Source: a virus
IMG/VR virus record: IMGVR_UViG_3300046786_000331
Coordinates: 81,728 to 145,727 of that record
Length of the DNA stretch: 64,000 nt
Reading direction: 5' to 3' (one strand)
Shown: in pieces, positions 9,536 through 49,056 of the stretch
How the letters are laid out: each line of letters starts with the position of its first letter
How positions within the stretch are numbered: position 1 is the first letter of the stretch
The notes under the pieces: model-generated
Databases searched by the model: none
What the model saw: only the letters and a program-made list of their open reading frames with translations
Told to the model about the DNA's origin: nothing
Program-made: the position numbers and the translations under genes

Positions 9536-10492
9536 ATGCCCTTACAGATTCGCAGAGGCAACACCGCTGAAATCAACGCTATCACGCCACTAGTAGGCGA
9601 GATTATTTACAATACACAAACCGGAAGCCTCCACGTTGGTAACGGTACAGATCCTGGTGGAGTAATTGCCACAGCATACAGCAATGACATGGCCAAAGAT
9701 GCTGCTGCTGAATCTATCGCAGACGGCACACATTCCAATATTTCCTTTACATACAATCCTACAACTAAAGCATTAAGTGCAGCGTTGGATGCAAAGATTT
9801 CAACAGATTTAAAAGGATCTGTTTATGATGCTACAGATACATTATTGCTAGATGCTACCACAAATACATACTACGGAAATGTTGATTCTGTTACCGGTTT
9901 GAGTTATTTTAGTGCTGTTAATATTCGTAGCAATGTTTATAGTTCTGTATCTAGTGCATTTTCAGTAACACAGTCTCATAACATTGCTGATGCCAGAAAC
10001 GTTTCTTTTTTAAGATCTAGAGGTACTTACAGTTTCCCAACTGATGTACAAACAGGCGACGATCTAGCAGAGTTTGCATGCCTAGGTTATGCAGGTGGAC
10101 AATATGTAGTGGGCGGTCAGATTACAGTAAAGGCAGACGACACTGCTATTTCTAGTACATCACTAAGAACCAAGTTCCAATTCTTTGCTAACGGTGGCGC
10201 TGGAGTTCTAAGAGAACAAATTTCTATCGAAGCAAACGGTTTGTTAAAAGCTAACTATGGTATTACAAACAATACACTAACATTAGATGGTAATAAGATT
10301 TCAACTATTGTATCTAATGCAGATATCGAATTAGATCCTAGTGGTACAGGTACTGTAGATTTTATGGTTGCTGAACAAACAACTGTTGGCTCAGCAGGTG
10401 GTGCAACTGCATTACCAGCAACTCCTACAAAATACTTTAAGATTAAAGTTAATGGTGTTGCATATGTTGTTCCAGCATACGCAGTTTCTTAA
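9536..10492 (+). CDS. tail-fibre/virion appendage protein with Mtd-N-like N-terminus
   Basis: MPLQIRRG...PLVGEIIYNTQT..LHVGNG resembles the major tropism determinant N-terminal pattern; Thr/Ser/Gly-rich; C-terminal ALPATPTKYFKIKVNGVAYVVP. Confidence 0.75.
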   Translation: MPLQIRRGNTAEINAITPLVGEIIYNTQTGSLHVGNGTDPGGVIATAYSNDMAKDAAAESIADGTHSNISFTYNPTTKALSAALDAKISTDLKGSVYDATDTLLLDATTNTYYGNVDSVTGLSYFSAVNIRSNVYSSVSSAFSVTQSHNIADARNVSFLRSRGTYSFPTDVQTGDDLAEFACLGYAGGQYVVGGQITVKADDTAISSTSLRTKFQFFANGGAGVLREQISIEANGLLKANYGITNNTLTLDGNKISTIVSNADIELDPSGTGTVDFMVAEQTTVGSAGGATALPATPTKYFKIKVNGVAYVVPAYAVS

Positions 10493-10505
10493 TTTAATTG
10501 ATAAT

Positions 10506-10534
10506 AAAATAGGACCTTCGGGTCCTATTTTTTT
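10506..10534. terminator. bidirectional intrinsic terminator, identical to the 2510 copy
   Basis: AAAATAGGACC-TTCG-GGTCCTATTTTTTT between convergent genes. Confidence 0.9.
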
Positions 10535-27820: not shown

Positions 27821-28438
27821 ATGGGCAGCATTGCCCTAGCTATAGGTAACGGTGAAAGCCGTAGGAGCCTAGATCTTAATTCTATCAATAAAGAATTTAT
27901 AACTGTAGGGTGTAATGCCCTGCATCGTGATTTCATCCCTAATCATTTAGTGTGCTGTGATGCAAGGATGGTTAGAGAAGCTCTCGAGAATCCACTAACA
28001 GACAACTGTGAAATTCACGTAAGAGAAAACTGGCATCAGTACTTTAGAAAAATTCTTAAGAATAAGCACGTTAAACTTCTTCCGGAACTTCCGTATAAAG
28101 GAACACTTCGTCCCGACAATCACATACATTGGGGATCAGGACCATATGCTGTATTGATAGCCGCAATGCAAGAAGTTGATACTGTATATCTTGTGGGCTT
28201 TGATTTATATGGACGAAATAATCTTGTAAACAATGTCTACAAAGACACAGACAATTATCAAGGATCGCATACAGCCGCGGTGGATTACAGCTATTGGGTC
28301 TATCAAATTTCAAAAATATTTGATTGCTTTCCAAATAAAAAATTTATCGTTGTCAACCAAGAACTATGGAATTTGCCTGCAGAATGGCAAAAATCTAATA
28401 CAAGTGTTGTATTTTCGTTAAATACCCTGTATAATTAA
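27821..28438 (+). CDS. sialyltransferase/MptE-like Rossmann-fold protein
   Basis: IGNGESR, GCNAL, WGSG, VYLVGFD pattern. Confidence 0.55.
   Translation: MGSIALAIGNGESRRSLDLNSINKEFITVGCNALHRDFIPNHLVCCDARMVREALENPLTDNCEIHVRENWHQYFRKILKNKHVKLLPELPYKGTLRPDNHIHWGSGPYAVLIAAMQEVDTVYLVGFDLYGRNNLVNNVYKDTDNYQGSHTAAVDYSYWVYQISKIFDCFPNKKFIVVNQELWNLPAEWQKSNTSVVFSLNTLYN
28407..28435 (+). promoter_or_regulatory. sigma70-type promoter for queD, with an embedded TAAATA
   Basis: TTGTAT(28407)-17 nt-TATAAT(28430); TAAATA 28419-28424. Confidence 0.65.
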
Positions 28439-28443
28439 AAGCT

Positions 28444-28486
28444 AGAGGACTTAGACGCTCATCCCTCTTAAAAAATTCTGCGTGTC
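28444..28486 (+). promoter_or_regulatory. candidate preQ1-I-like riboswitch pseudoknot in the queD 5' leader
   Basis: P1 AGAGG/CCTCT, A-rich tail TAAAAAA, loop ACGC pairing with downstream GCGT; lies between the promoter and the queD SD. Confidence 0.55.
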
Positions 28487-28509
28487 ATTGCTAATCTTAG
28501 GAGATAACA

Positions 28510-29016
28510 ATGGCAAATCTACAACCAGTACTTTACAAGTACACATCAACAAAAGAATATCACGACGCCTTTCCTTGCGCTTATCGTCAATGGCGAGCTG
28601 ATAGTCACTGTAACTTAATTCACGGATACAGTTTTTCAATGAAGTTCTACTTTGGAACTAACGATCTAGATGTTCGTAACTGGGCTGCTGACTACGGCGG
28701 ACTCAAAGAACTCAAGAAAACATTAGAAGATCAATTTGATCATACCCTAATCGTTGCCGCAGACGATCCAGAAATGGAAACGTATAATCTTTTAGTAGAA
28801 AAGAAAATGGCAAAGGTCGTTGTATTACCTAAACTAGGATGTGAAGGTCTTAGCGATATGCTCTACAAGTATGTCAACGGAGTTTACATTCCTGAAATGT
28901 GGGGTCCAGGTGAAGCGGAAAGACTTTGGTGCTATCGCGTCGAAGTCCGTGAAACACAAAGCAATATGGCTTTCCGTGAAGGTCATCGTGAATGGAATGA
29001 AGACTTATTTGCATAA
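28510..29016 (+). CDS. queD: 6-carboxy-5,6,7,8-tetrahydropterin synthase (PTPS/QueD family)
   Basis: HCNLIHGY, DYGGLK, FDH, G-C-E, VEVRET; AGGAG SD. Confidence 0.85.
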   Translation: MANLQPVLYKYTSTKEYHDAFPCAYRQWRADSHCNLIHGYSFSMKFYFGTNDLDVRNWAADYGGLKELKKTLEDQFDHTLIVAADDPEMETYNLLVEKKMAKVVVLPKLGCEGLSDMLYKYVNGVYIPEMWGPGEAERLWCYRVEVRETQSNMAFREGHREWNEDLFA

Positions 29017-29919: not shown

Positions 29920-30109
29920 GATTAAACGACTGTTGCATCTTCTAAACGAAGACAATCGTTACACGTTTAATCGCATGTATGCTCCAAATAATTTAGATCA
30001 AGATGTTGATTTAACGGTTGACAAGATGCCGGCAAAACAGTTATCATGGGCATTGCAACAATGTCAAAACTCCTACTACAGACTTTTTAAGGTTATTCAA
30101 AGTGCTTAA
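29894..30109 (+). CDS. hypothetical protein
   Basis: ORF from ATG 29894. Confidence 0.6.
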   Translation: MTPKQKRVEIKRLLHLLNEDNRYTFNRMYAPNNLDQDVDLTVDKMPAKQLSWALQQCQNSYYRLFKVIQSA

Positions 30110-31127
30110 ACGAATCGGCTTCGCCTGCAAACTTATCGACGGTCCTAGCCAAATTGATGGCATTAAGCAGACTGATAACTGCAAACAATATAATACCAAC
30201 ACCACAACTGTTGCCTGGTTAAATAGACAATCGCGGGCCGTTGCTGAAGAAAAGTTGTGGGACTTAATGAAACACAACATCGAAGCATGTCGCCTGCTTG
30301 TTAAAAAGGTAGGCACTTTTGATGAAAATCTTAGAATGGTACGACTCAGTAGCGATATACTTCCTGTTTTCACTCACAGTGATTGGGGGTTCTTTTATGG
30401 GCTACCCGATGTTAGAAGTTATTGCGAAAGAGAATTTAGAAAAGTGGGAGATTTGGCTCGCCAGAATAACGTTCGCCTCAGTTTTCATCCCGGTCAGTTT
30501 ACTGTGCTTGCATCTGCTAATCCAGGTATTGTAGATCGTAGCATTGAAGAATTTGAATATCATGCACTAATGGCTGCATGGATGGGCTACGGACAAACTT
30601 TCCAGGACCTTAAAATTAACGTGCATATTTCGGGCCAGCAAGGTCCTGACGGTATTCGTAAGGCATATCAACGCCTTAGCCCCGAAGCACGTAACACACT
30701 CACAATTGAAAATGAAGAAATTACACACAACCTTGAAACCTGTTTGGAACTTGCTGATCTCGTTCCAATTGTATTGGACATACACCATCACTGGATTAAC
30801 TCGGGGGAATATATTGACCCTACTGACGAACGTGTTCAACGGGTTATTGACAGTTGGCGCGGTGTGCGCCCTACTATTCATTACAGTGTATCTCGCGAAG
30901 ATGTACTCGTTAATCATGCCACTGGACTCCGTCCCGATCTTCCGACCCTCCTAACAGAAGGTCACAAGAAAGCAAAGCTCAGGGCACATTCAAACTTCTA
31001 TTGGAATACAGAAGTTAACAAATGGGCACTGAGCTTTAGGGAAGTTGCAGATATCATGTGCGAAAGCAAGGCTAAGAATCTAGCCAGTTTCGCACTCTAC
31101 GAAGAAGCTAAACTATTAGGCCTGTGA
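30102..31127 (+). CDS. uvsE: UV DNA damage endonuclease
   Basis: RIGFAC, RLSSDILP, RLSFHPGQF, INVH, LTIENEE, LDIHHH, HYS, RAHS, MCESKAK; start moved to GTG 30102. Confidence 0.92.
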   Translation: MLKRIGFACKLIDGPSQIDGIKQTDNCKQYNTNTTTVAWLNRQSRAVAEEKLWDLMKHNIEACRLLVKKVGTFDENLRMVRLSSDILPVFTHSDWGFFYGLPDVRSYCEREFRKVGDLARQNNVRLSFHPGQFTVLASANPGIVDRSIEEFEYHALMAAWMGYGQTFQDLKINVHISGQQGPDGIRKAYQRLSPEARNTLTIENEEITHNLETCLELADLVPIVLDIHHHWINSGEYIDPTDERVQRVIDSWRGVRPTIHYSVSREDVLVNHATGLRPDLPTLLTEGHKKAKLRAHSNFYWNTEVNKWALSFREVADIMCESKAKNLASFALYEEAKLLGL

Positions 31128-31400: not shown

Positions 31401-31421
31401 ATCGAAATCTCCTTGTGGTTT

Positions 31422-31437
31422 TATTTATTAATAAATA
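31422..31437. promoter_or_regulatory. perfect 16-bp palindrome made of two back-to-back late-type promoters
   Basis: TATTTATTAATAAATA between divergent genes. Confidence 0.7.
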
Positions 31438-31442
31438 TCATC

Positions 31443-32063
31443 ATGATAATATCTTGCGGTCCTGAATCTGATAAAAGAACATTAACATTAGAACTTCCAA
31501 CAGAACCTAGCAAAATTGGTATATTTGTTAGTGGCGGCTTAGATAGTGCAATTTTGTATTATCTTTTAATGGAAGAAAATAAACGTCAAAATAACATTCA
31601 CGAAATTGTTCCGTTAACAGTATTGAGAAAAGAAGGATCCAAAAACTTCTCACAATTAGTTGTAGCACACGTTCAGAGTGCTTTTCATTATTCATACACA
31701 GAATCATTAAAAGTTGGGGACAATACATTACCCGAGCCTGAGCAAGTTAAATCAGGCGTACAGGAAGCATTTAAACTAGGTTTTAAGCGTGTTTATACAG
31801 GACTAATAGAACAACTATCAGAGCATATGATCGGCTGGGATAAGATACCCTACAACGAAAACGACTTCTTCAAAGCACCTATGAAGGATTTAAACAAAAG
31901 TCATGTAGTAGATCTTTGCTATTTGTTCAATCAAGAAACCTTATTCTACATTACGCATAGTTGTGCGGCTTGGGAAGTCAGTAGATGTTATAGCTGCAAT
32001 GGCTGTAACGAAAGACGTTGGGGTTTTGAGCAACTACTCAAAATAGATCCGGGTACTATTTAA
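31443..32063 (+). CDS. QueC-like PP-loop ATPase
   Basis: FVSGGLDSA, P..DLNKSHVV, THSC-x6-CYSCNGC.ER Zn site; start moved to ATG 31443. Confidence 0.75.
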   Translation: MIISCGPESDKRTLTLELPTEPSKIGIFVSGGLDSAILYYLLMEENKRQNNIHEIVPLTVLRKEGSKNFSQLVVAHVQSAFHYSYTESLKVGDNTLPEPEQVKSGVQEAFKLGFKRVYTGLIEQLSEHMIGWDKIPYNENDFFKAPMKDLNKSHVVDLCYLFNQETLFYITHSCAAWEVSRCYSCNGCNERRWGFEQLLKIDPGTI

Positions 32064-32417: not shown

Positions 32418-35400
32418 ATGGCAAGAAAAATAATTGACATCGGCGTTGTAGGTAACGACGGCACAGGCGACAGTATTCGCGATTCGTTTAGAAAAGTAAA
32501 CGACAACTTTAGAGAATTATATAGCTCTCTCGGCTTAGGTGAAAGACTAACATTCATCGGATTAGATGACGTTAAAGCCGATTCCGGCAGTCAGCCTTAC
32601 AGAGAGCTCGGCGGTTACTTAGGACAAGAAAATGCTATCTTGTCAGTTAACCCAGACGAAAGCGGTATTAAGTTTAAACAACTAATTCCAGGTTCTGGTA
32701 TTAACTTAGATTTTACTACTAACAACAACGAAATTAGAATTAGCTCAGAATTTTCTGAAGTTGTTGCAGACCCAAGCCCACAGCTAGGCGGCGATCTAAG
32801 TGTAAAGTCCGGTGGTGTTACACACCGAATTAAGGACATGGAAGAGTTTGGTATTCCTATCAAACCTATATTTGAACACGAAGCAGTTAATAAAAATTAC
32901 GCAGATACTAAGATTTCTCGTGCTGGCGTTGATGCTATTGATCCTAGAACAGGTGTGTCAAATCCTGCGTTCGGAACAATGTCTGGACCGTTGGTTCTAT
33001 CTAGAGATCCACAACCAGATGATGATGAAAAATATGATGGCTTAGTTGCTGCAACTAAACGATATGTTGACAACTCTGCGTTTGGTAGTAGCGTTAACTT
33101 GTATGTTGCTACATCAGGTGCTGATGATAGAGTTGGGGTTAGTTCTGCTTTACAAGGTCGTGCATTAGCTTATGCTTATCGCACAATTGAAGCCGCATGT
33201 AAACGAGCAGAAGAAATTATGCTTGAATCTCGTTTGGAGATCGGGCCATACAAGAAAGTATTAACTTACAATCAAGGTCAAGGCGAGTGTTCGTTAGACT
33301 TCATCGATATTGCTCCTGGTTCAGGTGGCGGATTCAGTGGAACTGTATTGATGAGTGTTGACACCATCACAGTTAGCAACGTAGGTGTTAACTACAGACC
33401 CGGAGACATTATTACTGTAGCCGGTGGCACTTATACACAACCTGCCACATACGAAGTTTTATCCATTACAGCAGCAGGCGGTGTTCTAACATTTAGACAA
33501 TTGAGTTCTGGTGTGTATACCGCACTACCTGGAAATACTGATGTATTAACAACTACCGACAGCGACTTTGGTGGATTAGGCGGCGGTGATGCTGTTGTAA
33601 AATTCAACATTACTTACAAAGTTAATAATGTTCAAATCAATTCCGGCGGTTCAGGTTACGGACTTGTATCTGTACGTATCGTCGGAGGTGGTGGTCAAGG
33701 AGCCTTTGGTACTGCTGATATCGTCGGCGGTAGCGTTATGGGAATTACAATCACTGACCAAGGTACAGGATTTACTAGTTTACCAAACGTTGTTGTAAAT
33801 CTTCCTCGCTTCTTAATTAAGACAGAAGGATATAAAACAGACTTTACAGGTGATTACTCTACATCAACTCCTTCGGCAATTAGAGGAAGAGACATTAGAG
33901 AAGGTTTGTATCTAAGAGGAGAAAGCTCAGGCGCTCTAGCACAAATCTTAGCGCACCAAGGAGCATTAGATAGCGACGGTAATGAAATATTTGATGTTGA
34001 TATCAAATACGGTTCTTTTATTATAGGCGAAGCAATTTCCTACGGTGATGTTACTAAGAACACACAAATTACAATTTTAGTTGAAAGCGGTATCTACGAA
34101 GAAAACTTACCATTACGTGTTCCTCAAAACGTATCTATCGTAGGTGATGAATTTAGACGTTGTATTATTCGTCCAAAGAACGGAGTTAGTTCAAGCCCAT
34201 GGGCATTCTTAAACTTCCGTAGAGATCTAACAATTGGACAAGAGAACTTAGATCAACTAGTTATTGCTGATAGATTGTTTGGATATCACTATCTAACAGA
34301 TAGCAGCACTCCTGTATATCCTATTGTAAACAACAAAGGCTATTATCGTGCTGCTGCTGAACTTCTTTCACTAAACAGACAGTTCATTCAGAAAGAAGTC
34401 ATTGGTTGGATCAACAGTGAAATTATAAATCAAAATTCACCGTTCACAAGTTCATTCTTATATAATCAAGAATTATGTGAAAGAGACGTTGGTTTAATTA
34501 TTGACGCTATGGTCTTTGACTTAAAGTGGGGCGGTTCAAACAGAACTATTTCTGCTGCATTAAAATACTATGGCAGTGCTAGTGGTTTAATTGCTATTGG
34601 AACTGGACAGCTAAGTCAAACAATTGCAGGAATTAACCGTATTGGAACACTAGCACAATTAGTGATTAGAAACGTTCCTATTACTGAAACCTACAATACT
34701 ACAATTACTCAAATTGTTGATAATGCTTATGTTGCAGAAACCGGATCCGGTGGAGTTTCATTCAGTATTGGAAGTGCTACTAATGCCAATCCAGTTGTTG
34801 TTACAACAACATCTGCACACGGACTAACAAACGGTAGTCAAGTTTTAATTAGTGATGTTAGTGGCATGGAAGAAATTAACGGTAATGATTTCTACGTAAG
34901 CCTTATTGATTCAACATCATTCTATCTCTATAACGATCCTGCACTAAGTGATTCCGTTGATGGTACCGATTACGGAATTTACACTTCTGGTGGTAATGCT
35001 ACAAACACCGGCGGAGTGATCGGTGCATTAATTAATGTTATTGTTGATGTTATTGATAACTCAGGAAGTGTAAACTATCCTAAAGACAACGACAGAATGG
35101 ACGTTCTTTTATGTAACGATTCTGTTCGTGTACAATCTATTACATTCCAAGGGCATGGCGGATTTGCTATGGTACTTGATCCAGAAGGACAAATCCTTGC
35201 AAAATCTCCTTATGCACAAGAATGTGCCAGCTTTACAAAGAGTAACGGAGAACAAAGATTTGCTGGTGGACAATATGTTGACGGATTTACAGGAAACTTA
35301 AAATTTAAGATTCTCAGCAAAGACAGCAATACATTCTTGCGTGTTGGTGAATTAAATCGTATGCCGCAATTGCCGGCTTCGTTTATTGTTGAAGATACAG

Positions 35401-38400
35401 TTTATAGAATTAACTATGTTAGAGATTATACTTTCAACACAGCAGGTTCTACTGCGTCTTTTGTTTTAGATGAATCAACACCTTGGCCCTTTGGAGTATT
35501 CACTTATGACAGTGATATTTGCTCTAGAGACGTTGGATTGATCCTTGATGGTCTAGGGTACGACATTGTATTAGGAACTAACTATCACGCAAGAAAAGCA
35601 GGTCTAAGTTATAGACAAGCCAATGCTGCTGTAGTTATTAGCGATCAATTAGATCTAACTATACGAGCTATCGAATATGCACACGATCTTGCTTATGCAG
35701 CAATTTCGTCATATCCAGCTGCACAGCCTACAGTATTAACAAGTAAAAATGCAATAGCATCAATTGTGCAGAACGGTTCAACATTTGCACCGAATCTGTT
35801 GTTTACATTGCCTAGTGGATTATCGGCAAACGTAACCAATGCTAAAATTCTTTTAGAATCTAACATTGATTTTATCAAAGACGAAACAGTTGGATACATT
35901 ACTTCAACTTACCCGTCGTTAACATATACTGTTGATACATGTGCTAGAGATGTTCAATACATTATTGAAGCATTAATTTATGATTTAATCTATGGCGGTA
36001 ATAGTGAAACACGAAAGGCAGGTATCAAGTATTATGATGCTGTAGGTTCTGTTGAATCTCTACAGATACCTGTAGGACAATTAACCGAAACAGTAGATGG
36101 TATTAATTATGCCAACTATCTAGCCAAGAGAGTTATTCAAAACCTAGCACCTGCAACAACATATTCTTCAACAGTAAGAACTAGCGGAACTCCAGCTAGT
36201 GGTGCTGAAGTAACTATTGTTGATACTTTATTAACCAATGTTGCTGCTATTATTTCTGGCGGAACTGGTGCTGCTGCCGCAGAAACACTTCCTAGCTTAA
36301 CTGGATATCTAACAACATTAACTAATGCTAGAGATGAATTAGTATCGAGTACAGCATCTATACAGTCTGGTACTATAAACTTTGTAGACGAAAATGCAAA
36401 CGTTTTTGAAGTATTAATGCCTGGTAATAGATCTATGTTGAGCAATGACTACACACAGATCAACGACTTAGGTTATGGTATCGTTGTTAATAACGGTGGT
36501 TTGGCAGAATGTGTAAGTATGTTCACGTACTATTGCCATATTTCATATTACTCAATCGGTGGTGGACAAATTCGTTCAGTTGGCGGTTCTAGCTCGCATG
36601 GTAACTATGCTTTAGTTGCTGAAGGCGCTGACCCATTAGAAGTTCCAACTCCAGTTACACTCTACTACGATCTAGCTCAGGGCGCAGAATGTTATTACCC
36701 ATCGGGTGCATTTGCTAACGCTGTTGCTGGTTTGGAAATTTACATTACAAATTACGATTATGTTCCACTAGAGAGCAGTGAGCTTGAAGTTGATCATGGA
36801 CTTGGATCAATCTATAGATATCCAATCACTTCTGTATCAACTGCTGGATTACCAGCAGGTGTTGCTAGATTAGGACTAGGCAGCAGTGAAGGAACAGGAG
36901 TTGATGGTTTGGCGGCTGTAGTCGCAGACGGAACAGTTTTAACCATTAGACAAAACGCACAGGTTGTATTAACAGGTAACGTTGTTGAAGTAGCTGTTCG
37001 TCCAAGTACTGGTTTGGTATTAAGAGAAAGTTCAGACGTTTATCGTATCTTACAATTTGAAGCATTTGAAGACCCAGCGGGTGCAAATGTATTCACAGTG
37101 TCTATTGCTAACCCCGGAGTCATTACAAATGTTGGTCATGGATTACAACCTGGTTATCAGATTAAATTATCAACTACAGGTTCATTGCCAACAGGATTAG
37201 ATACGCTAGCAACTTACTACGTATTGTCAGATGGCTGGACTGCTAATTCTTTCAGGATTGGTGTTAACAAACGAGGTCCTGCGATTGTAACAACCGGTTC
37301 ACAATCAGGTGTTCATAGCTATACTGTTGAAGGGCTTGCTCGTACTACAATGCGAGAAAACTACAACTATGTAGACATGTCAATCTATCCGCAGCAGCCT
37401 TTCGATGCTACAGAACGTGTTTGCACAGTTAGTATTGCAAGTCCGGGAGTTGTAAATTTATCAAGTCATGGATTTATTGCAGGGGATGTTATTAGATTTA
37501 CATCTACTGGTTCTTTACCTGTTGGATTAAGTACTACTAGACATTATTTTGTTAAGAATGTTTTAAGTCCTAGCACATTCACTGTAACCGATACTGCAAC
37601 ATCAACTTCTACAGAAGTTGCAACTTCTGGAACACAATCCGGTATACACAAGGTTGGAAAGGTTCTTGGAGCAGCAGGTAGCACAACATTTGCTATTACA
37701 GGTTTAGGTACATCAGAAGCTGACAGAGTTTTAAATTCTAAATTTGTTTGGAAGGGCCAAGAATACATTGTTCAAAGTTATAGCAGTGAATTAGTGACTG
37801 GAGAGCCATATGCTACAGTAACAGTAAGTCCTGCACTTAACGACAGCGTAGTATATTGGACATCATTACCAACACTGAAATCAGCTGTAGCTAAAGATGA
37901 ACCAGGTACACTAACAATTCGTATTTCGTTAACTCGTGTTACATCACATGACTTGTTAGAGATTGGTACCGGATCATATGCTGACACCAACTATCCTAAC
38001 GAAATTTATGGACAGTCTGTAAACCCATTAAATGATGCTAACGAAACAGAAGAACGTGGAGTAGGTCGTGTATTCTATGTTACCACAGACCAATTTGGTA
38101 ACTTTAGCGTTGGACCATATTTCCGAGTAGACCAAGGTACAGGTACTGTTACATTTGCTGCTGCGATTGCTCTAAGTAACTTAGACGGTATTGGTTTCAA
38201 ACGTGGTGTTCCAGTTAGTGAGTTTTCCACAGACTCTGCAATGTCAGATAACGCAACTGACACAGTTCCTACAGAAAACGCAACTAGAGGTTATATAGAA
38301 CGTAGATTAGGTATTACACATAATGGTTCTGTTGTTAGTGCAGGAACATTAATTCCTCCAATTTCAGGAGGATTCTTAGCCCTAGACGGACAGTTGGCTA

Positions 38401-39806
38401 TGAAAGCCGACATGGACTTGGATCAACATAGAATCATTAATGTTGCTGATCCTGTAGGAGCTCAAGATGCTGTAAACTTACAAAGTCTACAAATAGGTAA
38501 TATTGCAGACGTTGGAATAACAAATCCAAGATCCGGTGACTTGTTTACATTTACCGGTGTAGGAAATTATGTACAAAACTCTGCAATGGTTGGAGACATT
38601 AGTCTTAACATTGACAGCACTGCTAACACCGTAGATGCTCAAATTAATCCAGGGGTAATTGTTAACGCAGACATTAATGCCAGTGCAGCAATTGCACAAA
38701 GCAAGTTAAACATGACTGCGGCAACGACTCGTGCAAATGCTACAGGTATTACTCAAGCTGATCGTGGTCTAGCAAGTTTTGACGATAGTCAATTTACTGC
38801 AACCAACGGTTGGATCAGTATTAAAGATAACAGTATTGTGTTATCTAGAATTGAACAGATTGCTTCTAAGACCGTTTTAGGTAACAATACACTAATAGCC
38901 GGCAACGTGGCGGCAGTATCATACAGTACTATTGTAAACGAAGGCGGAGCAATTAAGAAGAGCCAGTACAACACCGGAACTGGTTATCTACGAAGAATTG
39001 GTTTCACAGCAACTAACGATGCTGATTATGCTATCGTTGATGAATCAACTACTGCTACCGCAAGCACTTTAGTTAAGCGTGATAGTAACGGCGACTTTGC
39101 TGCTAGAAATATTTCCATAGAAAAACTAATTGTTGATACTAAGACTGTATTAGATACTACAACTAGTGCAACAGGTGGTTACACACAAGTTTATGGTTAT
39201 CTAGGACAAGTTGGTATTTTAGTTGGTGACGGAAGTGTAGGTACCGATAAGAGAACGTACTACGATAATGACGGACACGTCTTTAGAACACAAAACGGTC
39301 TTTCTAATGCGCCTATTACAGCTTCTAGTGTACAGACTATTGCACTAACTACTGGTGCTACTGGAACACAAGGAAATATCACAGGCGACTGGAGATTAAA
39401 CTCTGGTAGCAAACTACAGGCAACCTATGCCGACTTAGCTGAATATTACGAAGGTGATAAAGACTATCCTGTGGGAACTGTTTTAATATTCGGAGGTGAT
39501 AAAGAAGTTACGTTATCTAACACTAAAGAAGATCATAGAGTAGCAGGAGTTGTTAGTGATAACGCTGCTTATGTTATGAATTCCGAGTGCGGTGGTACTA
39601 AAGTACTAATAGCTCTACAAGGTCGTGTACCAGTTAGGGTAGTGGGTAAAATCCGCAAAGGAGACTTGATAGTAACTTCAAACATCCCAGGTGTTGCTGT
39701 GTCAGTCGGTGGTGTTGCTAGACCAGGAACAATCATCGGCAAGTCACTGGAAGACTTTGATTCAGATCACATTGGCACCATTGAGGTAGCCGTAGGAAGA
39801 ACATAA
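32418..39806 (+). CDS. very large virion structural protein (baseplate/tail-fibre), 2462 aa
   Basis: T4 gp9/gp10-like N-terminus (IGxxGNDGTGDSIRDSFRKVNDNF); three CxRDV repeats; three S-x-A-x-P...HG repeats; C-terminal ADLAEYY...GRVPV chaperone-like domain. Confidence 0.85.
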   Translation: MARKIIDIGVVGNDGTGDSIRDSFRKVNDNFRELYSSLGLGERLTFIGLDDVKADSGSQPYRELGGYLGQENAILSVNPDESGIKFKQLIPGSGINLDFTTNNNEIRISSEFSEVVADPSPQLGGDLSVKSGGVTHRIKDMEEFGIPIKPIFEHEAVNKNYADTKISRAGVDAIDPRTGVSNPAFGTMSGPLVLSRDPQPDDDEKYDGLVAATKRYVDNSAFGSSVNLYVATSGADDRVGVSSALQGRALAYAYRTIEAACKRAEEIMLESRLEIGPYKKVLTYNQGQGECSLDFIDIAPGSGGGFSGTVLMSVDTITVSNVGVNYRPGDIITVAGGTYTQPATYEVLSITAAGGVLTFRQLSSGVYTALPGNTDVLTTTDSDFGGLGGGDAVVKFNITYKVNNVQINSGGSGYGLVSVRIVGGGGQGAFGTADIVGGSVMGITITDQGTGFTSLPNVVVNLPRFLIKTEGYKTDFTGDYSTSTPSAIRGRDIREGLYLRGESSGALAQILAHQGALDSDGNEIFDVDIKYGSFIIGEAISYGDVTKNTQITILVESGIYEENLPLRVPQNVSIVGDEFRRCIIRPKNGVSSSPWAFLNFRRDLTIGQENLDQLVIADRLFGYHYLTDSSTPVYPIVNNKGYYRAAAELLSLNRQFIQKEVIGWINSEIINQNSPFTSSFLYNQELCERDVGLIIDAMVFDLKWGGSNRTISAALKYYGSASGLIAIGTGQLSQTIAGINRIGTLAQLVIRNVPITETYNTTITQIVDNAYVAETGSGGVSFSIGSATNANPVVVTTTSAHGLTNGSQVLISDVSGMEEINGNDFYVSLIDSTSFYLYNDPALSDSVDGTDYGIYTSGGNATNTGGVIGALINVIVDVIDNSGSVNYPKDNDRMDVLLCNDSVRVQSITFQGHGGFAMVLDPEGQILAKSPYAQECASFTKSNGEQRFAGGQYVDGFTGNLKFKILSKDSNTFLRVGELNRMPQLPASFIVEDTVYRINYVRDYTFNTAGSTASFVLDESTPWPFGVFTYDSDICSRDVGLILDGLGYDIVLGTNYHARKAGLSYRQANAAVVISDQLDLTIRAIEYAHDLAYAAISSYPAAQPTVLTSKNAIASIVQNGSTFAPNLLFTLPSGLSANVTNAKILLESNIDFIKDETVGYITSTYPSLTYTVDTCARDVQYIIEALIYDLIYGGNSETRKAGIKYYDAVGSVESLQIPVGQLTETVDGINYANYLAKRVIQNLAPATTYSSTVRTSGTPASGAEVTIVDTLLTNVAAIISGGTGAAAAETLPSLTGYLTTLTNARDELVSSTASIQSGTINFVDENANVFEVLMPGNRSMLSNDYTQINDLGYGIVVNNGGLAECVSMFTYYCHISYYSIGGGQIRSVGGSSSHGNYALVAEGADPLEVPTPVTLYYDLAQGAECYYPSGAFANAVAGLEIYITNYDYVPLESSELEVDHGLGSIYRYPITSVSTAGLPAGVARLGLGSSEGTGVDGLAAVVADGTVLTIRQNAQVVLTGNVVEVAVRPSTGLVLRESSDVYRILQFEAFEDPAGANVFTVSIANPGVITNVGHGLQPGYQIKLSTTGSLPTGLDTLATYYVLSDGWTANSFRIGVNKRGPAIVTTGSQSGVHSYTVEGLARTTMRENYNYVDMSIYPQQPFDATERVCTVSIASPGVVNLSSHGFIAGDVIRFTSTGSLPVGLSTTRHYFVKNVLSPSTFTVTDTATSTSTEVATSGTQSGIHKVGKVLGAAGSTTFAITGLGTSEADRVLNSKFVWKGQEYIVQSYSSELVTGEPYATVTVSPALNDSVVYWTSLPTLKSAVAKDEPGTLTIRISLTRVTSHDLLEIGTGSYADTNYPNEIYGQSVNPLNDANETEERGVGRVFYVTTDQFGNFSVGPYFRVDQGTGTVTFAAAIALSNLDGIGFKRGVPVSEFSTDSAMSDNATDTVPTENATRGYIERRLGITHNGSVVSAGTLIPPISGGFLALDGQLAMKADMDLDQHRIINVADPVGAQDAVNLQSLQIGNIADVGITNPRSGDLFTFTGVGNYVQNSAMVGDISLNIDSTANTVDAQINPGVIVNADINASAAIAQSKLNMTAATTRANATGITQADRGLASFDDSQFTATNGWISIKDNSIVLSRIEQIASKTVLGNNTLIAGNVAAVSYSTIVNEGGAIKKSQYNTGTGYLRRIGFTATNDADYAIVDESTTATASTLVKRDSNGDFAARNISIEKLIVDTKTVLDTTTSATGGYTQVYGYLGQVGILVGDGSVGTDKRTYYDNDGHVFRTQNGLSNAPITASSVQTIALTTGATGTQGNITGDWRLNSGSKLQATYADLAEYYEGDKDYPVGTVLIFGGDKEVTLSNTKEDHRVAGVVSDNAAYVMNSECGGTKVLIALQGRVPVRVVGKIRKGDLIVTSNIPGVAVSVGGVARPGTIIGKSLEDFDSDHIGTIEVAVGRT

Positions 39807-42468: not shown

Positions 42469-45400
42469 ATGGCAATTAAACCATTCGCAATTCAAGGCGC
42501 TGACCTAACACTAGGCGGTGTTAATTTACAAGCAGGTACAACTGGTGTTGTTATTCCTGGCGTTACACAAGCGACTAACTATCTAGCAGAAGAAGTTAAT
42601 GATACTAATATTGATCAAAGTGTACAATTTGTACAACTTTCTATAGTAATAGACGCTGTAACTTATAATGCGTTATCGACTAGCGCAAGTATAGAAGCCT
42701 ATGCGAGTTATACTGTAGAGGTAGACGATGATTTTTATATTGACAATATCGAAGTAAGTAGCCCAGGTTCGTATACACAACAAGAAAAGACCACCAATGA
42801 AACAACAGATATGTGGGCTTATACTGGTTTAGTTGATCCATTCACAACACCCTTTGACGAGGCTGATTGGCTGCAAGTTCCATTCCGTCCTAAGATGAGA
42901 GCAGGCGAAATTGAAAACGTTGGCGGTGGCGGAAGCGGCATTAATAAAGTTTATTCATACGGCGGTTTATATAAAATTGTAGCAGTCATCCCTGGAGAAA
43001 ACGTTGTTTTCATAGCGGGCGACCAAACAGGCACCCTAAACAACTGCGAGTACATTAACGTTAGTGTTGCTCCTCCACAGGTAGCATTTGCGACACTTGA
43101 CATATCTTATAACAATATTACTGATCAAACTGCTATAACTTTTGATGGAGACCTCACTGTTCAATCGTGGTTTGCCACTCAAGATACTCAAGTTGCTGCC
43201 ATTAATCTAACAAACAATCTAACTGGTTTGTTTGTTTCTGGTGGATACTCAGAGGATGGTACATTTGCCATTAACGCTACAGATAGAATTTACTCTCCTA
43301 ATAATCCGAGTTCGTTTATAGTAAATGACGATTTCACAGTTACATTCCCAGATGGTACTGTACAAACTACAGCCTACACTGGTTATGCCAGACGTTCATT
43401 CTTGTTACATGAGTATGCCGATCCAGCTGGATTTACAATCCCATCTACAATCACAATTGATGGTATGGACTATGCGGGCGGCGAGGTTCAACAGGATAAC
43501 GTATTTGGCACAAGCAGTAGCCGTGTTACCCTATACGCAGACAGTATGTTTGCTATAATTGCTCTAAACACTGACATCAACGCAGTCTATTACAATGGTG
43601 AATTTGGTTCAGATGGTGATGGACAAAAATCAGTTAGTTCAGGTTTAGAAAACTATCGTGATGGTTATTATTCTTGGTACAATAAACTTTCAGGGGATGA
43701 TCCTGCTGTAACACAGATTGTTATTGCCAAGAACCCTACTAACCCCGGTGGTGTTAATTACTATAATAGAAGCACAGATACTAACAACGATGACTTTACA
43801 GTAACAGGCTTAGACGGTGCTACAACTGTTATTGTGTTCAATGTCTACTGGGACGCTGTCAACGGACCAGGTTATGAAAGTTCTATTGAAATAGCCACTA
43901 AGGCCATTATTGATGGAGCAATTTACGACGACAGTCCAACAGAACTAACTGATCTGGCTGCTATAAAGGCAGCGTTCTATGCTAGATCCACCGATAGAAA
44001 AAATGCTATCGAAGGTTGGGAAGGCGACTTATTATTCGCCAATGGATTTGATTTCTTTGGCGACACCTATCAAGCAGTTAAGCCAACAGGTGGAAGCGGC
44101 ACAGGTGCTGTGCTAGAATTACAGGTATATCCAGACGGTAGTGATTTTGTATATGATGAGCAGGATGTGATTTTACCTGGCTCGGGATATCAAATAGGAG
44201 ATACACTAACTGTTCCAGGATCGGAGTTTGGCGGTACAAGTCCTGCTAATGATGTAACTATCACTGTAGATACTGTCAGTTTTCCAAGCGGCGGCATTGT
44301 AGATTATACTGTTAATGGAACAGCACCTAGTCAAGTATGGCCGCAGTCATACATTCGTGACGGTGACAACGATCAATACGACATTGGCAACTTCATTGGT
44401 ACAGACCGTACTCGTGTAACTGCTGTCGGTACTTTAACATATACTCCAGAAGGCGGCAGCGAGAGTGGCAACGATGTATTCCAAGTATTGAATATTATCA
44501 GTGCTGACAAGGCTATTCGCCCAGGACAGTGGGCATGGTTTGAAAACGCAGGCCGTGGGGCATTTATCAACTGGGCATTGAGCTACGGTGATAATAACGA
44601 AGCCAGTTACCTAGATGAATACACTGGTTATACCAGCACAGCGGCACTAAACTACGACTATCAAGTAGACGTAGACAACGCACACTTAAACATAAACGGA
44701 GCAGGCGATTGGTTTATTGGCAGTGAGAACTTTAACACTAGCATACAAGGTATTGACGAGATAGCCCCAGAGCCTCGAGATATAGAAGTCAGAGCCGATG
44801 GTAAAACTTGGTTATTTGGACGTGATGGTAGCATATACTTGCCGCAGAATGGTGATATCAAAGACAGCTATGGCAATTCAGTGCTAGGTATTGGTAACAG
44901 CGGTATTCCACTACCAGATTGGTTAAATGTAGTAGCAGGCACAGAGCACTTGCCAACACTTAATGTTGACTACGGTTGGGACAAAGACGGCGTATGGACT
45001 CGTAACTTTACTATTACTGGTAACGACGAGGGAATATCATATCCATTCCGTACTACTGATTCTGCTCTAGCGAATCAGACAACCATAGTCACAGTTGAAT
45101 TTGATGTATCCGCAGATTTCCAAACAGACTTTGGTATCGGTGTATTTGCCGCTTCTACTACAAATCCAGTATGGGGTTGGGACTTGACTGAGGGTAACCC
45201 AACTGCCAATAGAATTGGAGCACAGTACAACGGACCTGTTCCCGAACTACATGGTATCAGCAGTGGTGCTACTGCCGACGTTCCTAATCCAAGTAACTGG
45301 AGTATTCCAAGTGCTGGCACATACGTGGCAAGACTAACAGTACAACCTACTGAACCAGGTATAGCGACTATTACACTGGAAACACTAGACACTGATGGTA

Positions 45401-48400
45401 ATGTATTAAACACTATCACTTACACCGAAGAATCGTTCTTTACTACTCCTTATAAGATTGGATTTGCCAGCGACAACGACGGTGGTATTGTCAAAGGATA
45501 CTTTAGAAATCTATCAGTTGACATTGACGGCGGAACATTCCATCAAGACGCACTGGTTAACTACACTTCAGTACCAACTACTAATGCTGACATAATTGGC
45601 GACAGCGGAGTAAGCACTAATGGTTCTAAAGTTACAATTTACACTGATGTCTACGGATATCAAGGTGGCGAAGAAACTAGAGTACGTGTCAAAGATCCTG
45701 CCAGTGAAATATTAAACACTTACTATGACGATGAAGGCCCATTTGGTACAGGCACTATCACATTCCGTAACGGTGAAGTAAGAATTATTACTAATGCCTA
45801 CAATGACGGGCAACAAGATGGCGTTGATATGACAGTAATTGATTGGTCTGGTAGTGTACCCGGCGGCTCTGACAATCCACGCTTCCCTGTTACATTCAAG
45901 ACTGCTAACTATGTTGAAGAAGTTAGAGATTCAGTACGCATCAAACCAAGTGAAGGTGCGGCACAGTATCAAGATCAGTACATGAAAGTCTACGCAGGCG
46001 GCGGTGTTGCTCCTGCTATAGATAGCCTACACATCCACATGGCCGGTGCTCAAGAAAATGTAGAACTGTTCCTAGGCACAGACAACAACTATGTGTCTGC
46101 TAAAGAAGCAGGTACTACACCAGCAGGTGTACGTCTACACAGTGATAACGATGTTGAAGTAGTCAACAGCAATCTACGTATTAATCGCAAGGGCAGTAAC
46201 TGGGTTCACATTTATGGTGATGGCGATAACCGCAACATACACGGTCAAACCTACGATGTAAGTTGGTCCACAATGGCTGCTGATGAACACGGTGATTTGT
46301 ATGTGGGTGGTGAAGCCAACAGTTATGCTGAGGCTATCGTCAGCAAGATTGGACGTGATGGTAACCTAATCTGGAGCAAGTACAACAACGGAGACAACGT
46401 TGAAGGCTGGCAACTTGATGGTATTGCCTATCATGATGGGCAAGTGGCTACCCTGGTACAGACTAACAGCGGACGTGGACAAAATTACTATAAACTGTCA
46501 GTTATGGACAGCAATAATGGTGACGTAATATCTACCACTGACATCTATGATGATGAAGGCGATCTAAATGCTAGTAGCATGATATATCACAGCACACTGG
46601 GTTGGACCATTGTTGGACAAACCTACGGTGAGTTTGGTACAACAACAAGTATGGCAGACACCAACAATCCTAAGGACTACACTGATTGGATTCGTTTACC
46701 TGGTGACAGCACTATCATTGATGGACAGTATCCTTCAAACTATAACAATTGGGCCATAACAGGTACAGGTATCACTGGCACACAGCAACTAAACGGTGGT
46801 GTTGGTTTCTACAGAAACTGCCAAGTTCTCAACGTTACAGGATCAGGTGAAAATGCCACAGTAAATGTTGTTGCTGACTATAACAGCAACATTTATTATA
46901 TTGATCAGATTACCAGCGGCGGTATTAACTATGCCACAGGTGACACTCTTAAAGTATCGGGTGCTGTATTTGGCGGCGTTCCAGGAGCCACAGCACAGGT
47001 AGCCACTCCAACTGCTATTGCTCTTAACGGCAGTAATCTAGTTGAGATGACATTTACCAAGGCAGGCTATCCAAACTTATACAATCAACTCAAGTGGGCT
47101 GGTTGGACCGCAGAGTACAACACTAATATTTACAACGTGGTTAACATTGTAAGCAGTGGATCAAACTGGATTGTTGCTATTGATAGTACAGATACTAACA
47201 GCGGTACACCGCCTGAGGTAACATTCTACACAGTCAGCGGTAATGATTTCTTGTTTACCTGTGGCAGTGATGGCGGCCTTGTCAGTACCTCCGGCCCTAC
47301 CGGAACAGTCAGCAAGGCATACATTGACATTAACCTAACTCAGTTGGGCTATAATGGGCAAGACCTAAGAGCCAGTGTAACAAAAACTTCTGGTACAGAC
47401 TTTACTCCTGGTGATTATAGAATTTATGGTGACGGTGTAACTTCATACTTTGTTCTAGCAGACGACAGTATTGACCCAACAGGCGTTAAAACTTGGTTTA
47501 GAAATGCTGACACAATTACCGTAACAGAACCAACATACGGCACATCTGAAGTTAACTTAGTCAGTCAGTATGTTCCTGTTCCAGGAACATCTTACAGTGG
47601 TTGGACTCTAAGTGCTAACATTGGTGGCGGTGATCCGTTTGATTCTAACATTACATCAGTGGTATACAAAGGTGCTCCGGGTACATTTACTGTTACAAGA
47701 CAGAGAAATGCTCGTGCTTGGGTCTGGACAAGTGAATGGACACGCTACTTAGGAGTTGTAATCGACGCCAATGACGCTTATCCAAACAGTCGCGGACGTT
47801 GTATCGCAGAAGATCCTAACGATCAAAGTCTAGTAGTTGGTGGTTATATGAATTCACCTAACGGTACAGGCAATGCTTTAGTTTGGAAACTGTCTAAGAC
47901 TGGTACCACTCTGTGGGCCAAGACCATTGACGATGATGGTAACTATGTACGAGGCATAGCCGTTAGCCCATTGACCAGTGAGATTTATGTAGCATCCAAC
48001 GCAACCGCTATTACTAAGATAGCCAGTGGTGGCGGCTCAATCGCTGGTCGTGTATATCCAACAGGCATGTGGGGTGTCAGCGAGCCTGAAGTACATGTAA
48101 AGGTAGAAGATGACGGCTATGAATATGTTTATGTAGGTGCCAGAGGTAATGCTATATGGACCAACAGTCAAGACGTATTCTGCTTGAACAAACTAACTAG
48201 TGACTTACAAACAGTATGGGGAAGATGGTTAGGCTATTCAAATGACAGTTTTAGCACAGACTACGACATAGATCATACCAAGTTTGTCATAGCCAACGGA
48301 CAGGCAAGTATAGCAGGCTACGGTTATATATACAGTGACAATAACACAAATGGTTTAATCTATACACTGAGCACACAGGATCAGTTTGATAGTTACTACA

Positions 48401-49056
48401 ACAGTAATTGGTCAGTTCAACAGAACGCTGATCAAGTGTGGGCCTTAGATACTAGCAGTTATACCTTGTTTGACTTATTGGCCAATGGTGTTACAGCCAC
48501 TACCGCTACAACACAGACTCAACTCGATTCCGGCCAACTAGCATGGAACAATTACGCATTCCAGTCACAACTAGTGAACTTGAACAAGGAACAGCGAGGT
48601 ATCAAGGGAGTTGAAACTATCGAGTTTGCTGACGGTGGCATACTAGATCACAACCCTAGTGATATTCCTCCAAGTCAGTTCTTTGATCCTACCACTACCA
48701 ACTGGGAATACACACTACAGTTAAGCGACCGTGGTAGATTTATTCTAAATCAAACAGTACCTAATGATACTTATTGTCAAAACTTGTATGTGTATGTTCC
48801 ACGCAATGACGATGTGCCGTTCCCAGTGGGCACAGTGATTACATTGATTAATGCTAGTAGCAGTAGTGCAGGCGGACAAAGAATCTATGTATATCCTGTG
48901 GATTATAACAATCAAGAATGTGCTAAGATTTGGTCAACCAGCGGCAATCAAAACTCAAGTCAATGGAGTTTCCAAGGCATACAGACTGCTACCTTGATGA
49001 AGATTAGCACTAATGCTTGGTTGTTAACTGCTAACGATATTTCAAACGAGGACTAA
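42469..49056 (+). CDS. large tail fibre/receptor-binding protein, 2195 aa
   Basis: AAGGAG SD; FPDGTVQTTA, GGSGTGA, beta-propeller-like segments, C-terminal FPVGTVITLIN...ATLMKISTNAWLL fibre module. Confidence 0.8.
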   Translation: MAIKPFAIQGADLTLGGVNLQAGTTGVVIPGVTQATNYLAEEVNDTNIDQSVQFVQLSIVIDAVTYNALSTSASIEAYASYTVEVDDDFYIDNIEVSSPGSYTQQEKTTNETTDMWAYTGLVDPFTTPFDEADWLQVPFRPKMRAGEIENVGGGGSGINKVYSYGGLYKIVAVIPGENVVFIAGDQTGTLNNCEYINVSVAPPQVAFATLDISYNNITDQTAITFDGDLTVQSWFATQDTQVAAINLTNNLTGLFVSGGYSEDGTFAINATDRIYSPNNPSSFIVNDDFTVTFPDGTVQTTAYTGYARRSFLLHEYADPAGFTIPSTITIDGMDYAGGEVQQDNVFGTSSSRVTLYADSMFAIIALNTDINAVYYNGEFGSDGDGQKSVSSGLENYRDGYYSWYNKLSGDDPAVTQIVIAKNPTNPGGVNYYNRSTDTNNDDFTVTGLDGATTVIVFNVYWDAVNGPGYESSIEIATKAIIDGAIYDDSPTELTDLAAIKAAFYARSTDRKNAIEGWEGDLLFANGFDFFGDTYQAVKPTGGSGTGAVLELQVYPDGSDFVYDEQDVILPGSGYQIGDTLTVPGSEFGGTSPANDVTITVDTVSFPSGGIVDYTVNGTAPSQVWPQSYIRDGDNDQYDIGNFIGTDRTRVTAVGTLTYTPEGGSESGNDVFQVLNIISADKAIRPGQWAWFENAGRGAFINWALSYGDNNEASYLDEYTGYTSTAALNYDYQVDVDNAHLNINGAGDWFIGSENFNTSIQGIDEIAPEPRDIEVRADGKTWLFGRDGSIYLPQNGDIKDSYGNSVLGIGNSGIPLPDWLNVVAGTEHLPTLNVDYGWDKDGVWTRNFTITGNDEGISYPFRTTDSALANQTTIVTVEFDVSADFQTDFGIGVFAASTTNPVWGWDLTEGNPTANRIGAQYNGPVPELHGISSGATADVPNPSNWSIPSAGTYVARLTVQPTEPGIATITLETLDTDGNVLNTITYTEESFFTTPYKIGFASDNDGGIVKGYFRNLSVDIDGGTFHQDALVNYTSVPTTNADIIGDSGVSTNGSKVTIYTDVYGYQGGEETRVRVKDPASEILNTYYDDEGPFGTGTITFRNGEVRIITNAYNDGQQDGVDMTVIDWSGSVPGGSDNPRFPVTFKTANYVEEVRDSVRIKPSEGAAQYQDQYMKVYAGGGVAPAIDSLHIHMAGAQENVELFLGTDNNYVSAKEAGTTPAGVRLHSDNDVEVVNSNLRINRKGSNWVHIYGDGDNRNIHGQTYDVSWSTMAADEHGDLYVGGEANSYAEAIVSKIGRDGNLIWSKYNNGDNVEGWQLDGIAYHDGQVATLVQTNSGRGQNYYKLSVMDSNNGDVISTTDIYDDEGDLNASSMIYHSTLGWTIVGQTYGEFGTTTSMADTNNPKDYTDWIRLPGDSTIIDGQYPSNYNNWAITGTGITGTQQLNGGVGFYRNCQVLNVTGSGENATVNVVADYNSNIYYIDQITSGGINYATGDTLKVSGAVFGGVPGATAQVATPTAIALNGSNLVEMTFTKAGYPNLYNQLKWAGWTAEYNTNIYNVVNIVSSGSNWIVAIDSTDTNSGTPPEVTFYTVSGNDFLFTCGSDGGLVSTSGPTGTVSKAYIDINLTQLGYNGQDLRASVTKTSGTDFTPGDYRIYGDGVTSYFVLADDSIDPTGVKTWFRNADTITVTEPTYGTSEVNLVSQYVPVPGTSYSGWTLSANIGGGDPFDSNITSVVYKGAPGTFTVTRQRNARAWVWTSEWTRYLGVVIDANDAYPNSRGRCIAEDPNDQSLVVGGYMNSPNGTGNALVWKLSKTGTTLWAKTIDDDGNYVRGIAVSPLTSEIYVASNATAITKIASGGGSIAGRVYPTGMWGVSEPEVHVKVEDDGYEYVYVGARGNAIWTNSQDVFCLNKLTSDLQTVWGRWLGYSNDSFSTDYDIDHTKFVIANGQASIAGYGYIYSDNNTNGLIYTLSTQDQFDSYYNSNWSVQQNADQVWALDTSSYTLFDLLANGVTATTATTQTQLDSGQLAWNNYAFQSQLVNLNKEQRGIKGVETIEFADGGILDHNPSDIPPSQFFDPTTTNWEYTLQLSDRGRFILNQTVPNDTYCQNLYVYVPRNDDVPFPVGTVITLINASSSSAGGQRIYVYPVDYNNQECAKIWSTSGNQNSSQWSFQGIQTATLMKISTNAWLLTANDISNED

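Follow-up and report, generated by a model that had tools for sequence, protein, structure and literature searches.

Is the leader of a phage queD-like gene a variant of the preQ1-I riboswitch, as a preliminary description of this locus had proposed, and if it departs from that plan, how would it act on the gene behind it? The window, i.e., the entire 64-kb stretch of DNA analyzed here, is the final part of a 145.7-kb IMG/VR virus record with a completeness of 41% (CheckV). Within it, a spacer of about 70 to 71 nt separates an upstream ORF from the start of the queD-like gene, and the leader elements that had been singled out, namely, a promoter, the AGAGG and CCUCU segments, an A-tract (positions 28470 to 28475), a Shine-Dalgarno sequence, and the AUG, are all found in the sequence where they had been placed (Table 1). 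The promoter sits within the 3' end of the upstream ORF. Folding of the single leader sequence was uninformative, being no better than that of shuffled sequences (z = +0.5 and z = -0.6), and the case for structure therefore rests on the comparison of relatives.

Table 1. Features of the queD-like leader and its surroundings (window coordinates; RNA letters for transcribed leader elements)
Feature	Position	Strand	Description
Upstream ORF	27821-28438	+	Stop codon at 28436-28438
Sigma70-like promoter	28407-28435	+	-35 TTGTAT (28407-28412), 17-nt spacer, -10 TATAAT (28430-28435)
H-type pseudoknot, candidate aptamer	28444-28486	+	Predicted 5' end of the queD-like mRNA
P1 5' arm, AGAGG	28444-28448	+	Pairs with 28464-28468; covariation
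L1, ACUUA	28449-28453	+	Positions 2 and 3 are CU in all true copies
P2 5' strand	28454-28461	+	P2a GACGC (28454-28458), U28459, P2b C28460 and A28461; covariation
L2	28462-28463	+	U28462 variable, C28463 invariant (alignments)
P1 3' arm, CCUCU	28464-28468	+	Pairs with 28444-28448; covariation
L3	28469-28478	+	A-rich, 10 nt, conserved Y-U-C end
P2 3' strand	28479-28486	+	P2b U28479 and G28480, C28481, P2a GUGUC (28482-28486); covariation
Alternative OFF-state helix	28483-28515	+	28483-28490 pairs with 28508-28515 (CAAUGGCA, AUG included); predicted in MFE and centroid folds of 28441-28525
Shine-Dalgarno, AGGAG	28499-28503	+	Sequence
queD-like start codon, AUG	28510-28512	+	Sequence
queD-like gene, 168 aa	28510-29016	+	T-fold PTPS/QueD; Pfam PTPS, 57 bits; PHROG QueD-like
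GT-A-like glycosyltransferase gene, 230 aa	29017-29709	+	PHROG 1962; protein-atlas neighbors
UvdE-type UV endonuclease gene	30018-31127		Between queD and the QueC-like gene
Divergent QueC-like PP-loop protein gene	31413-32063		SGGLDS PP-loop, C-terminal Cys cluster

Conservation and covariation of the leader

Viral contigs yielded 594 relatives of the QueD-like protein, and 80 of these were retrieved. The motif is present in all 76 leaders obtained by similarity of the QueD-like protein alone (76/76), in two of them further upstream, behind a small gene. A 14-base core pattern retrieved at least 119 further stretches; 97 of the matches listed have a complementary 5-bp P1, and the other listed matches, which do not, are chance matches in coding DNA. 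A covariance model built on 119 distinct copies gave exactly one match per source in 100 of 100 sources and scored the window at 49.8 bits.

Alignment of the related queD leaders bore out the conserved H-type pseudoknot that had been suggested for this leader, with covariation in P1 and in P2. The top two G-C pairs of the 5-bp P1, including G28448-C28464, are invariant among the relatives, and each of the three variable pairs shows compensatory changes (A-U/U-A/G.U, G-C/C-G/U-A, and C-G/A-U/U-A). As the alignment set was picked partly by P1 complementarity, the unbiased support for this helix comes from the protein-anchored set and the raw pattern matches.

The register of P2 had to be revised. 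The proposed pairing of ACGC (28455 to 28458) with GCGU (28480 to 28483) is not the conserved one; instead, positions 28454 to 28458 covary with 28482 to 28486, and G28480 and U28479, which the earlier register had used otherwise or left out, covary with C28460 and A28461. Across relatives, P2 consists of four to seven variable pairs (P2a), a conserved U.C mismatch, and two conserved pairs (P2b). Double changes occur at all five P2a pairs, 81% of the P2a cells are paired versus 33 to 50% in slid controls, and none of 500 shuffles reached the observed scores. In an anchored test that does not depend on an alignment, the observed stem length was reached by 0 of 2,000 permutations. Pairing is absent from about 19% of the P2a cells, and in some lineages the helix is interrupted by an internal mismatch or bulge. 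An unconstrained search for the best P2 helix anywhere did not separate cognate from noncognate partners, and the anchored and model-based tests were used in its place.

The two P2b pairs, C28460-G28480 and A28461-U28479, lie beyond the U28459.C28481 mismatch and were tested by targeted scans in which the partner base was left free. All variants at the A position are G, and all of these have C opposite (49 stretches, 26 distinct); all variants at the C position are U with A opposite (10 stretches). The targeted scans found no A opposite any base but U, no mixed P2b combinations, and no variants of the mismatch base U28459, and its partner C28481 is replaced, by U or A, in five copies only, on four contigs.

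The loops are conserved in sequence as well. L1 varies from 3 to 9 nt in length and begins with N-C-U in 89 of 91 distinct P1-bearing pattern matches, the remaining two being chance matches. L2 comprises 2 to 3 nt with an invariant C as its 3' base, and the alignments show a conserved A at positions 3, 5, 6, and 7 of L3. The RNA core stays constant while the QueD-like proteins behind it diverge down to 25 to 40% identity, and even across proteins that far apart, about a dozen unpaired bases show little or no variation. The structure, the selection acting on it, and its association with queD-like genes are secure.

Distribution of the motif

More than 600 contigs of uncultured phages carry the motif, and its carriers are exclusively uncultured, mostly jumbo, phages. 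Both the record containing the window and five large relatives, which include a 353-kb, 98%-complete genome, have one copy per genome. Contig L291 has two copies 800 nt apart (positions 9676 to 9711 and 10473 to 10508), the first preceding a 236-aa methyltransferase-like gene and the second preceding queD; in both, U replaces the C of the U.C mismatch.

A strict pattern, run against one genome each of 185,579 prokaryote species, gave 24 matches, of which only three are full length. These three copies lie on 4- to 8-kb contigs of metagenome bins and probably represent phage DNA. Three short motif-bearing contigs (L213, L222, and L223) have been placed in bins of Bacteroidetes, Nitrospira, and Chitinophagales, probably through phage contamination of bacterial bins. 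In cultured phages, the motif was not found by blastn, and the queD loci of phages Iggy, ACP17, X1, and Phosso gave no match to the covariance model. A search of the whole window against Rfam 15 at gathering thresholds returned no RNA family, and full-text literature searches found no description of the motif.

Gene context

The QueD-like protein of the window falls below the NCBIfam cutoff for QueD. It shares the CxxxHGY signature, present in 125 of 126 QueD-like proteins behind the motif, with the QueD-like protein of Pseudomonas phage Iggy, whose gene lies in a queE-queC-queD-folE-dpdA cluster, and it is therefore of the usual phage QueD type despite its NCBIfam score. In about 121 of 134 leaders, the motif is directly followed by a QueD-like gene. 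Five other leaders have a single additional ORF between the motif and QueD, methyltransferase-like in three of them, and most of the remaining cases are an effect of ORF chaining. At L158 / L010:2487-3504, a canonical CxxxHGH QueD-type gene comes first after the motif and one of the CxxxHGY type second, so that two T-fold paralogues stand behind one aptamer candidate.

In the window, the start of the glycosyltransferase gene abuts the queD stop codon, and the two genes are therefore probably coregulated. In many relatives (clusters 2 and 9), too, queD has a glycosyltransferase-like gene behind it. For the QueC-like protein encoded further on, Pfam QueC matches the C terminus only. Two giant ORFs lie downstream (32418 to 39806, 2,462 aa; 42469 to 49056, 2,195 aa).

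All five large relatives encode FolE, and three of the five encode QueE-like radical-SAM enzymes. G002 has folE, the motif, and queE together on the same strand within a 4-kb segment, and in G003 and G004, folE is found just 5' of the motif on the same strand. Neither DpdA/TGT nor QueF was detected in the six genomes G000 to G005, including the 98%-complete relative; as DpdA is divergent and most of the records are incomplete, this absence is weak evidence. With no QueF, the enzyme that makes preQ1, found among them, these phages have no visible route of their own to preQ1. The 353-kb, 98%-complete relative (G001; motif at positions 97577 to 97633) has genes for FolE, a QueD-like, and a QueE-like protein; TGT/DpdA and QueF were not found in it, and QueC appeared only as weak partial matches of the PP-loop type to Pfam QueC.

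Transcript start and expression platform

Among 136 distinct regions upstream of the motif in relatives, 102 have a promoter-like sequence ending 5 to 9 nt before P1. In 33 regions this is a sigma70-like promoter, whose -10 element ends 7 to 8 nt before P1, and in 69 it is a T4-late-like nATAAATA, 5 to 9 nt before P1. The promoter of the window is a weaker form of the sigma70-like class, the promoters of relatives being stronger and in the same position; it was missed by a consensus promoter scan because its -35 element matches at only three of six positions. Given this placement of the promoters, the transcript is expected to begin at the foot of this helix, and judging from the sequence, the leader in the window would start at about 28441 to 28443.

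The downstream part of the leader offers a competing fold. In the MFE structure of 28441 to 28525, P1 is kept, and the 5' strand of the alternative helix (Table 1) includes four of the five 3' bases of P2a, positions 28483 to 28486 being shared by this helix and P2; its 3' strand takes in the start codon and the codon that follows. An inner hairpin in the predicted fold (28494 to 28497 with 28502 to 28505) covers part of the Shine-Dalgarno sequence. Sorting of 118 distinct leaders gave three main platform types plus a few others. In type a (23 leaders), to which the window belongs, the partner of the P2 3' strand is the AUG region or, in four cases, the Shine-Dalgarno sequence itself. In type b (66 leaders), the last two bases of the P2 3' strand open a hairpin in which the Shine-Dalgarno sequence is enclosed, and in type c (26 leaders), the P2 3' strand pairs with the bases surrounding the AUG. 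Of the six bases that follow the conserved CUGC, two or more are paired with the ribosome-binding region in 92 to 100% of the 118 leaders, according to type, compared with about 45 to 70% when these six bases are shuffled.

In the types distinguished, P2 and the sequestration of the ribosome-binding site are mutually exclusive, which is how a translational ON switch would be wired. The feedback repression implied by the preliminary description was not borne out, as the platform is wired for activation, with the P2 3' strand serving as the anti-ribosome-binding-site strand. On these predicted folds, formation of the pseudoknot should turn translation of the queD-like gene on rather than off.

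In type-b leaders, L3 and the loop of the Shine-Dalgarno hairpin together spell a near-consensus sigma70 promoter, TTTACA-17-TGnTATAAT, in 61 of 66 cases. Such an internal promoter occurs in only 1 of 49 type-a and type-c leaders, a set that includes the window, and L3 is kept regardless. Type-b relatives (e.g., L004:2950-3000) mostly have a T4-late-like promoter 5' of the aptamer candidate (54 of 73). Transcripts from the platform-internal promoter could bypass the aptamer; if early type-b transcripts did so, switching might be limited to late ones.

Interpretation and alternatives

We lean, if only by a little, toward the reading that positions 28444 to 28486 are the aptamer of an uncatalogued, phage-restricted riboswitch, in which a knot held by its ligand frees the ribosome-binding region and turns translation of the queD-like gene on. 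The locus has the features by which riboswitches are generally recognized, i.e., a covarying structure in the 5' untranslated region, linked genes, and an alternative fold. The more specific proposal, that this is a new, phage-only riboswitch class that senses a guanine-like intermediate between GTP and 7-deazaguanine and switches on translation of the first committed enzyme, we put forward tentatively.

We infer metabolite sensing, a likely ligand, and an ON direction in vivo along the following lines. The transcript would begin at the foot of P1 and fold into an H-type pseudoknot, which would be held shut by a small molecule occupying either the P1/P2 junction or the U.C site, with C28463 as the likely ligand-pairing base. 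While the knot is held, the ribosome-binding region would be free, and the queD-like gene and the abutting glycosyltransferase gene would be translated; otherwise, the start-codon helix would prevail and translation would be low. In other lineages, the P2 3' strand would bury the Shine-Dalgarno sequence instead. Because transcription reaches the aptamer ahead of the competing strand, a ligand might already have fixed the knot by the time that strand is made.

The ligand would most likely be a guanine-like heterocycle of the route from GTP to 7-deazaguanine, the candidates being 7,8-dihydroneopterin triphosphate (the substrate of QueD), CDG, preQ0, and preQ1. The ON logic makes the QueD substrate the best-fitting candidate and, combined with the lack of a visible route to preQ1, renders dihydroneopterin triphosphate or CDG/preQ0 better guesses than feedback by preQ1.

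Several points count against a riboswitch. Biosynthetic genes are not usually under an ON switch, the fold energies of single sequences are nonsignificant, and about 19% of the P2a cells are unpaired. Furthermore, DpdA/TGT and QueF went undetected in the six genomes G000 to G005, and the internal promoter of type-b leaders could bypass the aptamer.

An alternative that we regard as unlikely is a translational operator, in which a protein of the phage or the host, perhaps the product of the queD-like gene, binds the pseudoknot in the way that gp32 binds the one in the T4 gene 32 leader. The computed evidence fits a protein and a metabolite alike, the conserved loops could be protein contacts, and the phages are T4-like, as judged by a gp9/10-like gene and the late-type promoters. 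However, the RNA stays constant while the neighboring genes and the QueD-like protein vary widely, and its small size, its invariant junction bases, and a competing helix at the ribosome-binding site are typical of metabolite aptamers. QueD-family proteins are not known to bind RNA, which we also count against an operator.

We give less credence still to a divergent but otherwise ordinary preQ1-I riboswitch that binds preQ1 and represses queD by feedback. The layout recognized in the preliminary description does stand: P1 (AGNGG/CCNCU), a UC before the P1 3' arm, and an A-rich L3 agree with the Rfam PreQ1 consensus, and the gene is a que gene. Membership in the family does not follow, as the Rfam PreQ1 model scored 0 to 11 bits against a cutoff of 39. 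A permissive search with this model (RF00522) returned nothing at an E value of ≤10 in positions 28380 to 28540 of the window, nor in the relative L003. In the relative L004, it gave a weak match of 11.3 bits (E, 2.6 to 4.5) at exactly this site and on the same strand; the aligned part takes in P1, the UC preceding its 3' arm, and the beginning of L3 and ends short of the P2 3' strand. Two pocket bases, U6 and A29, have no conserved counterparts, and P2, which is twice as long, lacks the Shine-Dalgarno sequence and on forming would expose the ribosome-binding site; QueF, as noted, was not found in these phages.

We give just as little credence to a leader that acts independently of any ligand, whether by fixing the level of translation, as a folding timer or thermometer, or as a stabilizer of the mRNA. 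Structure alone accounts for covariation, and lake phages meet variable temperatures; about a dozen near-invariant unpaired bases, however, exceed what a timer or thermometer needs, and the motif is specific to one gene family. Finally, that the conserved sequence is a promoter signal acting at the level of DNA, as the TTTACA-17-TGnTATAAT in L3 and the hairpin loop of 61 of 66 type-b leaders might suggest, seems to us highly improbable, since L3 is kept in the type-a and type-c leaders, only 1 of 49 of which has such a promoter, and since compensatory changes in three helices would go unexplained.

Returning to the riboswitch, which we favor, its size of about 45 nt, its abundance, and its clean structural support make this RNA directly testable. 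If a metabolite is indeed bound, the smallest known aptamer scaffold, that of the preQ1-I type, would have been rebuilt for another ligand and for activation, and a compact natural ON switch would become available to synthetic biology. Very few riboswitch classes are, to our knowledge, known from phages, and we know of none reported for the 7-deazaguanine pathways of phage DNA modification. If this is a new class, no earlier riboswitch would have served a phage pathway of nucleobase modification specifically, and the RNA would be a structural relative of preQ1-I in which the pocket is remodeled and the control is of the ON type. 

Comparison with known RNAs

The phage RNA shares with preQ1-I, known for example from Bacillus subtilis queC and from Thermoanaerobacter tengcongensis, an H-type pseudoknot at the 5' end of the mRNA, a 5-bp P1 topped by an invariant G-C pair, an A-rich L3, and a position upstream of a gene of the queuosine/7-deazaguanine pathway. 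It differs in its length (43 to 47 nt versus 33 to 34 nt), in a P2 of 7 to 10 layers with a conserved U.C mismatch versus about four pairs, in an L2 of 2 to 3 nt, and in being found in phages only. In preQ1-I, the P2 3' strand overlaps the Shine-Dalgarno sequence, or else a terminator forms, and the ligand shuts expression off, whereas here it is an anti-ribosome-binding-site strand, P2 of the window ending 13 nt before the Shine-Dalgarno sequence; the predicted outcome is accordingly ON instead of OFF.

The ligand pocket tells a similar story of partial likeness. In the T. tengcongensis preQ1-I riboswitch, the pocket is formed by C15, U6, A29, and the G5-C16 pair; C15 pairs with the ligand in Watson-Crick fashion, and the N9/N3/N2 edge of preQ1 is recognized by U6, which begins L1, and A29, which ends L3 (PMC8222354). 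In the phage RNA, C28463 is the invariant positional counterpart of C15 (C17) and, by analogy, may pair with a ligand, and the counterpart of G5-C16 is likewise invariant. The counterpart of U6 is not kept, as the first base of L1 is A, U, or C, and that of A29 is replaced by C28478, the invariant last base of L3. With two of the four ligand-contacting positions kept and two not, the phage RNA follows a preQ1-I-like plan and fails the tests for membership, and an altered ligand specificity relative to preQ1-I is a fair guess.

The models of preQ1-II (RF01054) and preQ1-III (RF02680) had no match in the window. Like the phage RNA, both of these classes are pseudoknotted, and they are 7-deazaguanine sensors that control translation. 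They are larger, adopt other folds (an embedded hairpin and an HLout pseudoknot), and are all known as OFF switches. The leader of T4 gene 32 also places a pseudoknot near the 5' end of a T4-like phage mRNA and governs translation; that leader is bound by the phage's own single-strand-binding protein, the gene's product, whereas the RNA described here precedes the gene of an enzyme. In the adenine riboswitch of Vibrio vulnificus add, ligand binding frees the Shine-Dalgarno sequence or the AUG from pairing with a strand of the aptamer. The fold of that RNA, a three-way junction, is unrelated, and the ligand and the class of gene differ, but there, as in the phage leader, one strand of the aptamer also pairs with the ribosome-binding region.
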